Shown: piece after piece, positions 28,123-29,118 of the stretch
Layout: each line of letters begins with the position of its first letter
Numbering within the stretch: position 1 is the stretch's first letter
Sequence record: MW286157.1
From: Escherichia phage vB_EcoM-BECP11
Direction: 5' to 3' (one strand)
DNA: 64,000 nt
Translations under genes and position numbers: made by a program
The notes under the pieces: generated by a model
The model's database searches: none
What the model saw: only the letters and a program-made list of their open reading frames with translations
What the model was told of the DNA's origin: nothing

Positions 28123-28736
28123 TGATTAAATTGGTATTCGCTTATTCTCCAACTAAAACAGTCGAAGGCTTTAATGAATTAGCATTCGGTTTAGGTGATG
28201 GTTTACCATGGGGACGAGTTAAAAAGGACCTCCAGAATTTTAAAGCTCGTACCGAAGGTACAATTATGATTATGGGTGCTAAAACGTTCCAGTCATTATC
28301 TGCATTACTTCCTGGTCGTAGCCATATTGTGGTGTGTGACCTTGCGCGTGATTATCCTGTAACTAAAGACGGCGATTTAGCACATTTCTATATTACTTGG
28401 GAGCAATATATAACTTACATCTCTGGCGGAGAAATTCAAGTGTCAAGCCCTAATGCACCATTTGAGACTATGCTTGATCAGAATTCCAAAGTAAGTGTAA
28501 TTGGCGGGCCTGCTCTGTTATATGCTGCATTACCTTATGCAGATGAAGTAGTTGTTTCTCGCATCGTTAAAAGGCATCGTGTTAATTCAACGGTTCAATT
28601 AGATGCAAGTTTTCTTGATGATATAAGCAAGCGTGAAATGGTTGAAACGCATTGGTATAAAATAGATGAAGTAACAACTCTTACGGAATCAGTATATAAA
28701 AATGAAATACCGCGGGGTGGAAAATATGAATTTTAA
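28122..28736 (+). CDS. frd: dihydrofolate reductase, with an 11-aa C-terminal extension relative to my recollection of T4 Frd
   Basis: [40 protein letters not shown] (DHFR fold motifs); ends ...[15 protein letters not shown]. Confidence 0.9.
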
Positions 28737-29073
28737 TTATTACCCTATTCTATTAGAAAAAGACGCGAAACAGCCAAAGTGGCAGGGTCCTCAGTTTATT
28801 AAAGGTGTCTATCAATTAGTAGTTCCTAAAGACAAGATTTATAGCAGTTGTTTCACTGAATCCGCTTGCAGTATTTTCGGTAATAGTTCTCCGTATTGGA
28901 ATTTTGACATAAAGCTGGATAGAAATATCGATATTTGGTTGAAAGCTATGGATATTGGTAATATTACGTTTGATGAGAATAATTATCATATTATTGGTCG
29001 CTTTTCCAAACGCGGTAAAGAATTATATTTCACACCTGAAATTGAGAGAAAATTTGATGCTAAACCGTATTGA
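28726..29073 (+). CDS. hypothetical protein (115 aa) encoded by extra DNA between frd and td; alternative start 28702
   Basis: ORF fills the frd-td junction, which I recall as overlapping in T4; GGTGGA 5 nt before ATG 28726; no recognisable motif. Confidence 0.45.
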
Positions 29074-29118
29074 TTATTTAGCTTCATAAAATGTATTATA
29101 ATTTATATAAGGTACTAA

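Follow-up and report, generated by a model that had tools for sequence, protein, structure and literature searches.

The frd–td interval of phage vB_EcoM-BECP11

We analysed the junction between the dihydrofolate reductase gene (frd) and the thymidylate synthase gene (td) in a stretch of 64,000 nt from Escherichia phage vB_EcoM-BECP11 (MW286157.1), called the window below; all coordinates are positions in it unless another record is named. Between the two genes lies a small open reading frame (ORF), here named A1. In T4 (NC_000866) the frd stop and the td start overlap by 4 bp as ATGA, as a preliminary description of the window had stated, and td holds an intron with the I-TevI gene. Alignment of the window to T4 places ~419 extra bases exactly at the frd/td junction, in agreement with that description. 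We conclude that A1 (28726–29073) is probably a functional small gene and a long-standing resident of the frd–td interval in Tevenvirinae, not a recent insertion and not the remnant of a homing endonuclease. The fused junction of T4 likely arose by secondary loss of A1.

A1 and its spacer are bounded by a short direct repeat (Table 1). The hexamer ATGAAA, reported earlier at the start of both the extra sequence and td, is indeed present at 28702 and 29119, in each case within an 8-bp copy of AAATGAAA; in the commoner T2-type haplotype the direct repeat is 9 bp long and reads TAAATGAAA. The A1 frame ends with the stop codon at 29071–29073 and offers two candidate starts, ATG 28702 (123 aa) and ATG 28726 (115 aa). 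The GGTGGA motif upstream of the second start is homologous to GGTGAAAA, which precedes the A1 orthologues of two metagenomic contigs, L003 and L004. The spacer between A1 and td is identical or nearly so in the A1-carrying Tequatroviruses examined, T6 having one 1-nt deletion. Promoter-like matches do not exceed the level of shuffled sequences (9 found, 8.3 expected), nor do terminator-like matches, and we make no claim for a MotA-box-like AGCTTCA-N11-TATAAT sighted by eye in the spacer. A1 would be expressed from the frd–td–nrd message.

Table 1. Coordinates of features in the frd–td region of the window and of related genes and junctions in other records
Feature	Record	Position	Strand	Basis or remark
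frd (dihydrofolate reductase), 204 aa, long-tail allele	window	28122-28736	+	ORF list; Pfam DHFR_1, E = 4e-19
A5 run; two extra A shift the frd frame beyond the T4-type TGA	window	28698-28702	+	alignments, junction listings
Left copy of direct repeat AAATGAAA, 8 bp, containing ATG 28702 (not the true start)	window	28700-28707	+	sequence
11 extra Frd codons, then TAA 28734-28736 lying 8 nt within A1	window	28701-28733	+	sequence, ORF list
GGTGGA, Shine-Dalgarno-like (putative function), 4 nt 5' of the A1 start	window	28716-28721	+	sequence
A1 (RB32ORF229c/RB14ORF231, phrog_1928), 115 aa, 13.6 kDa, pI 8.5	window	28726-29073	+	ORF list, homologues
Spacer, 45 nt, non-coding	window	29074-29118	+	sequence
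Weak sigma-70-like match in the spacer region, TTGATT / TATTAT	window	29070-29075 / 29094-29099	+	no above-shuffle support
AAGGT, putative Shine-Dalgarno for td	window	29109-29113	+	sequence
Right copy of direct repeat, (T)AAATGAAA, overlapping the td start codon; the 8-bp AAATGAAA itself at 29117-29124	window	29116-29124	+	
td (thymidylate synthase), 286 aa, intronless	window	29119-29979	+	Pfam Thymidylat_synt, E = 4e-94
110-aa DUF7247 protein, between frd.1 and frd	window	27533-27865		E = 7e-44
81-aa ORF, no family, between frd.1 and frd	window	27877-28122		
nrdA.2 (DUF5496)	window	30003-30266		
nrdA.1 (DUF4326)	window	30220-30546		
A1 labelled 'putative homing endonuclease'	L018 (Bas43)	1535-1882		unsupported by sequence or predicted fold
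A1 labelled 'putative homing endonuclease'	L019 (Bas37)	1090-1437		unsupported by sequence or predicted fold
A1 misnamed 'dihydrofolate reductase'	L014 (APTC-EC-2A)	424-771		no sequence or fold support
B	L005 (Sf21)	1698-1904		
B	L020 (dhabil)	872-1078		
B	L003	6670-6879		
B	L012	3148-3354		
B	L021	1578-1784		
Fused junction with very divergent td 5' allele	L006 (ECO07P3)	1698 onward		

Identity of A1 and selection on its sequence

A1 is already known, in the sense that it is a catalogued and widely annotated hypothetical gene at a well-populated polymorphic locus. The 123-aa form matches the profile phrog_1928 (function unknown) with E = 1.1e-35 over residues 12–119, and the RB14 record (FJ839692, protein ACP30875) lists 'RB32ORF229c hypothetical protein, flanked by 9 bp repeat'. 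The A1 proteins of the window, RB14, T2 and G8 are 100% identical and encoded at the same position, with further copies in T6, PST and slur03. A 601-bp query across the region matched 536 phage records, and the whole ORF is covered in 355. By tblastn, A1 is found at ≥90% identity in 362 records, 265 of them at ≥99%, and at <60% identity in 218 more (580 in total); the identical protein is present on 341 contigs, always named 'hypothetical'. An exhaustive HMMER search gathered ~20 clusters of the A1 family at 50% identity, all of 95–116 aa, and a search with the family hidden Markov model recovered no paralogue elsewhere in the window. Pfam assigns the flanking genes to DHFR_1 and Thymidylat_synt and has no match for A1, while searches of NCBIfam, PADLOC and PDB sequences returned no match for the A1 protein of the window. 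No paper or experiment on A1 was found in the literature by gene name, accession number or the combination of frd and td. A1 is, as first suggested, an uncharacterised gene.

The product had been given as 115–123 aa, and it is the lower figure that stands. In T2-type genomes, the majority haplotype, the upstream ATG reads ATG AAA TAA; we therefore rejected the 123-aa form and place the true start at ATG 28726. The orthologues that are 63–66% identical begin with MNFNYYP.

Comparison of the window with T2 reveals 12 synonymous and no non-synonymous substitutions in A1, and comparison with RB14 reveals 6 and none. In the same genome pairs the counts of non-synonymous and synonymous changes are 9 and 23 for frd, against 6 and 21 for td. 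Against the orthologues of L003 and L004, the ratio of non-synonymous to synonymous rates (dN/dS) of A1 is ~0.1. Judged by these substitutions, A1 is a real gene under strong purifying selection, stronger than that on Frd and Td, and is not decaying. The earlier suggestion of a decayed mobile element finds no support, given both this selection and the absence of a nuclease fold from a confident structural model, described below.

Some public annotations of A1 are misleading. The APTC-EC-2A record names it as the neighbouring enzyme (Table 1), and the 90%-identity cluster with the 105-aa A1 of JD18 also contains 199-aa proteins named dihydrofolate reductase, one of which is the representative. 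The frd and A1 genes of JD18 overlap by 17 nt in different frames and have no similarity; their co-clustering looks like a clustering or gene-calling artefact. We flag the names 'putative homing endonuclease' and 'dihydrofolate reductase' as misannotations of A1.

The C-terminal extension of Frd

The Frd protein of the window is 97% identical in amino acid sequence to that of Sf21. It is 11 residues longer than the 193-aa protein of T4, which ends in SVYK. The preliminary description had noted this gain correctly and ascribed it to an insertion that removed the ancestral frd stop. The latter explanation fails, as T2, T6, G8, PST and ~310 records have A1 together with an intact T4-type stop. 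In T2, T6, G8 and APTC-EC-2A the same A1 follows a left junction that reads GTATATAAATGAAATAACGCGTGGCGGAAAATATG, and in this T2-type junction Frd stops at the T4 position (TAT AAA TGA). The window and RB14 instead have the A5 run at 28698–28702, where T4, T2, T6 and G8 have A3, plus three nearby linked substitutions. The two extra A carry the frd frame past the T4-type TGA, so that it ends at the TAA 8 nt within A1. This long-tail haplotype is found at ≥95% identity in 10 records (27 matches in all), the T2-type haplotype at the same threshold in 308. The last six residues of the tail, GGKYEF, are colinear with GEKREF in the Frd tail of metagenomic contig L004. A homopolymer sequencing error was considered and rejected, since the A5 run comes with three linked substitutions and recurs in RB14, slur03/08/14, Ec_O157kw and BGP. 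From the alignments, the 11-residue extension is real; it represents a minority indel haplotype and is not caused by A1. With the frd stop 8 nt within A1, the A5 haplotype may keep frd and A1 translationally coupled.

Gene content of the interval in T4-like phages

The slot of A1 between frd and td is shared by the window, RB14 and at least five genera besides Tequatrovirus. A1 lies directly 3' of frd in JD18 (Jiaodavirus), PEi20 and CIP9 (Kanagawavirus), STML-198 (Gelderlandvirus), Merlin (Moonvirus) and PWKp16 (Marfavirus), as well as in the metagenomic contigs L003 and L004. Most of these phages and contigs also have a second gene, A2, which is a distant paralogue of A1 (hhalign probability 96.6–97.7%, same PHROG). 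The profile phrog_1928 merges the two, being matched by the JD18 orthologue and by A2 alike. We distinguish them by position, A1 directly 3' of frd and A2 second, and by an insert of 15–20 residues that A2 has after the QKKW motif. CIP9, PWKp16 and L003 carry a third gene, B, encoding a basic protein of 68–69 aa (pI 10.3, phrog_9550) that is unrelated to A1 and has no Pfam match. Dhakavirus and the Tequatroviruses of the Sf21 group have B as well, as the gene that occupies their frd–td junction; the overlaps there are ATGA and TAATG. The public annotations of B vary, and include 'DUF4858' and 'flagellar biosynthesis protein'.

The fullest form of the interval is frd-A1-A2-B-td, joined by overlapping stop and start codons, with different lineages keeping different subsets. 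A1 alone is found in the window, T2, T6, most Tequatroviruses and JD18; A1 and A2 in PEi20, STML-198 and Merlin; B alone in the Sf21 group and Dhakavirus; and nothing in T4 and RB69. In the phage collection, ~355–362 records have the A1 junction, 137 the B junction and 35 the fused T4 junction, about half of the latter being T4 itself. Among Tequatrovirus-like records this amounts to ~67% with A1, 26% with another small ORF and ~7% with the fused junction, so that ~93% of the sequenced genomes have a small gene between frd and td. By these counts T4 is the minority state at frd–td, and the perspective has to be corrected accordingly: the reference genome is the atypical one here. The preliminary description had considered that the ORF might prove to occupy this junction in most T-even genomes and to have an annotated function. 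The distribution is as wide as that; an annotated function was found in none. Alignment of the junction with other T-even genomes, as it proposed, places A1 in T2, T6 and RB14, and the junction is fused in T4.

B is 69–84% identical across very divergent genera, and the copies of L003 and PWKp16 are 79–81% identical to that of Sf21. Between Dhakavirus and the Sf21 group B reaches 97% identity, compared with ~80% for Frd and Td, which points to a recent exchange of B between genera.

The surroundings of the interval also vary. The window has two ORFs between frd.1 and frd that are absent from T4 (Table 1), and their homologues occupy the same place in Sf21, PST, L003, L004 and PEi20. Because these ORFs are kept at the same place elsewhere, T4 appears to be reduced on the frd.1 side of frd too. 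Downstream, nrdA.2 and nrdA.1 come after td as in T4 and overlap each other by 47 nt.

Within td itself, the window and RB14 (L002) are 95–100% identical across frd, A1 and the spacer and for a further ~140 nt into td; beyond ~29250 identity drops abruptly to 58–90% per 60-nt block. Synonymous divergence between the two phages is 0.84 in the 5' half of td, compared with 0.10–0.15 for frd and A1. The abrupt drop marks a recombination breakpoint, and shows that Tequatrovirus has two alleles of td that are deeply diverged. In ECO07P3, ECO07P1 and CJY920 the junction is fused and td has a third 5' allele, very divergent from the others (76–80% identity), while the 3' end of frd is 95% identical. 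This suggests that the ECO07P3 group acquired its td from a different lineage by a crossover at the extreme 3' end of frd.

Loss in T4 or insertion elsewhere

The preliminary description regarded A1 as having been inserted at the junction. The divergence of the genes speaks for the opposite event. Synonymous divergence between the window and T2 is 0.224 in A1 and 0.205 in frd, and between the window and RB14 it is 0.104 and 0.145, respectively. The frd gene of T4 nests inside the diversity of A1 carriers (synonymous divergence of 0.099 between the window and T4). Because the synonymous divergence of A1 matches that of frd and T4 frd nests within the carriers, loss in T4 is favoured over insertion, a view to which the occupation of the same slot in other genera contributes. 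Recombination between the 9-bp direct repeats TAAATGAAA that flank A1 would leave the T4 junction: a T2-type sequence from which the segment between the repeats is deleted equals the T4 junction base for base. The two flanks of T4 are 97.3 and 96.4% identical to those of T6, an A1 carrier, and 98.1 and 93.2% identical to those of Sf21, a B carrier. They are far from those of the fused phage ECO07P3 in td (76%). Examined as a possible insertion cassette, A1 has no transposase, integrase or nuclease, and its divergence is not foreign relative to frd.

Several observations weigh against loss in T4 and against long residence of A1. RB69 (Mosigvirus) has the same fused junction as T4, so the empty allele may be of early origin. 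The similarity between the left junction and the td start extends a little past the repeat (empirical p of 0.03 for the T2-type sequence and 0.17 for the window, relative to other ORF starts of the window), and TATATAA recurs before the right repeat; together the two similarities fit duplication of an insertion target. The A1 proteins of Tequatrovirus are 63–66% identical to those of L003 and L004, where Frd is only 49% identical, and the A1 of L003 is only 45–50% identical to that of its closer relatives CIP9 and PEi20. Because of these mismatches between A1 and Frd identities, A1 must have moved horizontally at least once. Strict vertical inheritance of A1 is upheld only partly, the pairwise identities of A1 and of Frd/Td being weakly correlated (r = 0.1–0.4). 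Furthermore, as the B copies of Dhakavirus and the Sf21 group show, frd–td alleles clearly move between genera.

These points can be combined into another history, in which an A1 fragment from a T4-like phage entered a fused junction of the T4/RB69 type early in the history of Tequatrovirus. Microhomology recombination would have duplicated a target of 9–20 bp, and T4 and RB69 would keep the ancestral empty site. Such an event accounts for a direct repeat of 8–9 bp exactly at the boundaries, for the weak additional similarities at both ends, for the identical junction of RB69 and for an A1 unexpectedly close to that of L003 and L004 relative to Frd. It would also explain why td has a 45-nt spacer with its own Shine-Dalgarno sequence in front of it, where the junctions of other genera overlap. 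However, start codons commonly stand in the context TAAATGAAA, which occurs 9 times in the window versus 3.7 expected, and of the 13 other ATGAAA starts, 9 match the left junction equally well. The frd tail of L003 and L004 is colinear with the 13 nt 5' of A1, and a chance landing in the very slot that A1 holds in at least five other genera is unlikely. Since A1 has, moreover, diverged as much as frd across Tequatrovirus, and T4 frd falls within the A1 carriers, we regard this early insertion as rather doubtful and retain the loss of A1 from T4 as the likely event.

The homing-endonuclease label of A1

A free-standing or decayed homing endonuclease that targets the frd/td region would agree with the presence of A1 in some phages and its absence from T4, at a site adjoining a gene with known intron homing, and the records of the BASEL phages Bas37 and Bas43 (MZ501089, MZ501106) carry this label. 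The BASEL paper gives no gene-specific evidence for the label, however, and the protein does not bear it out. Pfam, NCBIfam and PDB sequence searches detected no nuclease domain or motif in 23 members of the A1 family. Neither sequence nor fold matches GIY-YIG, HNH, LAGLIDADG or PD-(D/E)XK, which extends the earlier observation that GIY-YIG and HNH signatures are missing. With 115 aa, A1 has no room for a nuclease domain as well as a DNA-binding domain. It occupies the same slot across genera, which speaks against a sporadic distribution, although it is polymorphic within Tequatrovirus, and it has undergone zero non-synonymous change there. The homing-endonuclease interpretation is already largely refuted, and we consider it extremely improbable.

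The preliminary description had also invoked td as a hotspot of intron insertion. I-TevI is found in ~190–216 phage records with all three junction types, for example in T4 (empty), in PST, T6 and G8 (A1) and in SHFML-26 and JK08 (B). The intron hotspot is therefore irrelevant to A1, and a connection between the td intron (I-TevI homing with co-conversion) and the absence of A1 was rejected on the same grounds.

Predicted structure and possible functions of A1

An AlphaFold2 model of the 115-aa product, built on an alignment of 23 family members, reached a predicted local distance difference test score (pLDDT) of 92 and a predicted template modelling score of 0.84; a 4-sequence alignment gave a pLDDT of 61. 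Structure prediction had been proposed earlier as a way to detect a nuclease fold, and the model has none, nor any significant structural match in the PDB. All structures retrieved from BFVD belong to T4-like phage proteins that are uncharacterised. The modelled domain is compact and rich in beta strands, which are followed by one helix (68–76) and then a long hairpin (86–104). The order of strands and helix is compatible with an OB fold, which is a five-stranded barrel with a helix between strands 3 and 4, and the weak matches in both structure searches are mostly OB folds (SSB, RPA, S1, HIN, Teb1), all below significance. The OB-like reading of the model thus derives from element order and sub-significance matches, and the lack of any significant structural match counts against it.

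Residues Q16, W19, G27, G91, K95 and G97 are invariant in A1, and L9, Y29, N79, F93 and F102 nearly so. Most of these residues cluster at two sites, which also have the strongest motifs of the family: Q16-x-x-W19 in the loop that joins strands 1 and 2, and G91-R-F-x-K-x-G97 in the final hairpin. In OB folds these loop and hairpin positions are ligand-binding positions. As a tentative best guess from the model, A1 may bind single-stranded nucleic acid or a partner protein without acting as a catalyst. It is strongly selected in nature, and appears to be dispensable in the laboratory, since T4 does without it.

Alternatively, A1 could be an accessory protein of counter-defence or host takeover, acting as the inhibitor of some host factor; it would have no mechanistic tie to thymidylate synthesis, and its position would merely reflect conserved gene order. 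A1 is small, restricted to phages and dispensable in T4, and its varying presence within a genus, at a locus that swaps alleles between genera, is typical of accessory anti-defence genes. On the other hand, PADLOC, which covers defence systems only, has no family matching A1 at E up to 10, and the databases name it only 'hypothetical'. The near-uniformity of A1 within Tequatrovirus is also unlike genes engaged in an arms race, and A1 has kept its slot over deep divergence. A role of this kind is possible, if somewhat less so than a binding function.

A1 always lies between frd and td, its start and stop codons overlapping those of its neighbours or lying close to them, and it is under a purifying selection that exceeds that on Frd and Td. 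This could also mean that A1 serves the Frd/Td module as a stoichiometric partner or as a regulator, such as an adaptor of the complex that makes deoxynucleoside triphosphates or a translational regulator of the frd–td message. T4 and RB69 make the complex without A1, and tight packing and conserved order are general in T4-like genomes, which renders this role unlikely. More speculatively still, the model would allow A1 and A2 to be an unrecognised small OB-like fold that works with the thymidylate module and might bind nucleic acid or Frd/Td as a regulator of the thymidylate (dTMP) supply, a combination for which we see only a slim chance. If it were true, the chance deletion of the gene from the model phage, T4, would be the reason why A1 and A2 escaped notice for 60 years.

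Whatever its role, A1 is worth study: it has undergone no amino acid change across Tequatrovirus, is present in at least six genera and yields a confident model without a PDB relative. It has remained unstudied because T4 lacks it.

Relation to known systems

The free-standing homing endonuclease genes of T-even phages, seg and mob (reviewed in PMC2988022), resemble A1 in their presence/absence polymorphism between otherwise colinear genomes. A1 differs from them in having no nuclease motif or fold, in its size of 115 aa, in its conserved slot across genera, in being under strong purifying selection and in being unlinked to the td intron. The copies of A1 catalogued as RB32ORF229c/RB14ORF231 in T2, T6 and G8 differ from that of the window only in the left-junction haplotype, with Frd stopping at the T4 position. 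The junction of T4, whose frd/td ATGA overlap was reportedly first described by Purohit and Mathews in 1984, has the same flanking genes and codons as the window and equals it minus the segment between the repeats; T4 and RB69 are without the 417–419 bp in which A1 and the spacer lie.

Deletions between short direct repeats are known in T4 from the classical rII work, and modular gene shuffling is known in T4-type genomes. As in those systems, at the A1 locus a whole gene is gained or lost between short boundary repeats with the neighbouring frames left intact. The repeat at the A1 locus is the stop/start context itself (TAAATGAAA), not a promoter stem-loop cassette, and the deletion would be an event read from the sequence. 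The frd–td junction is a clean case, drawn from nature, in which overlapping stop and start codons mark the exact points where whole genes are removed or swapped.

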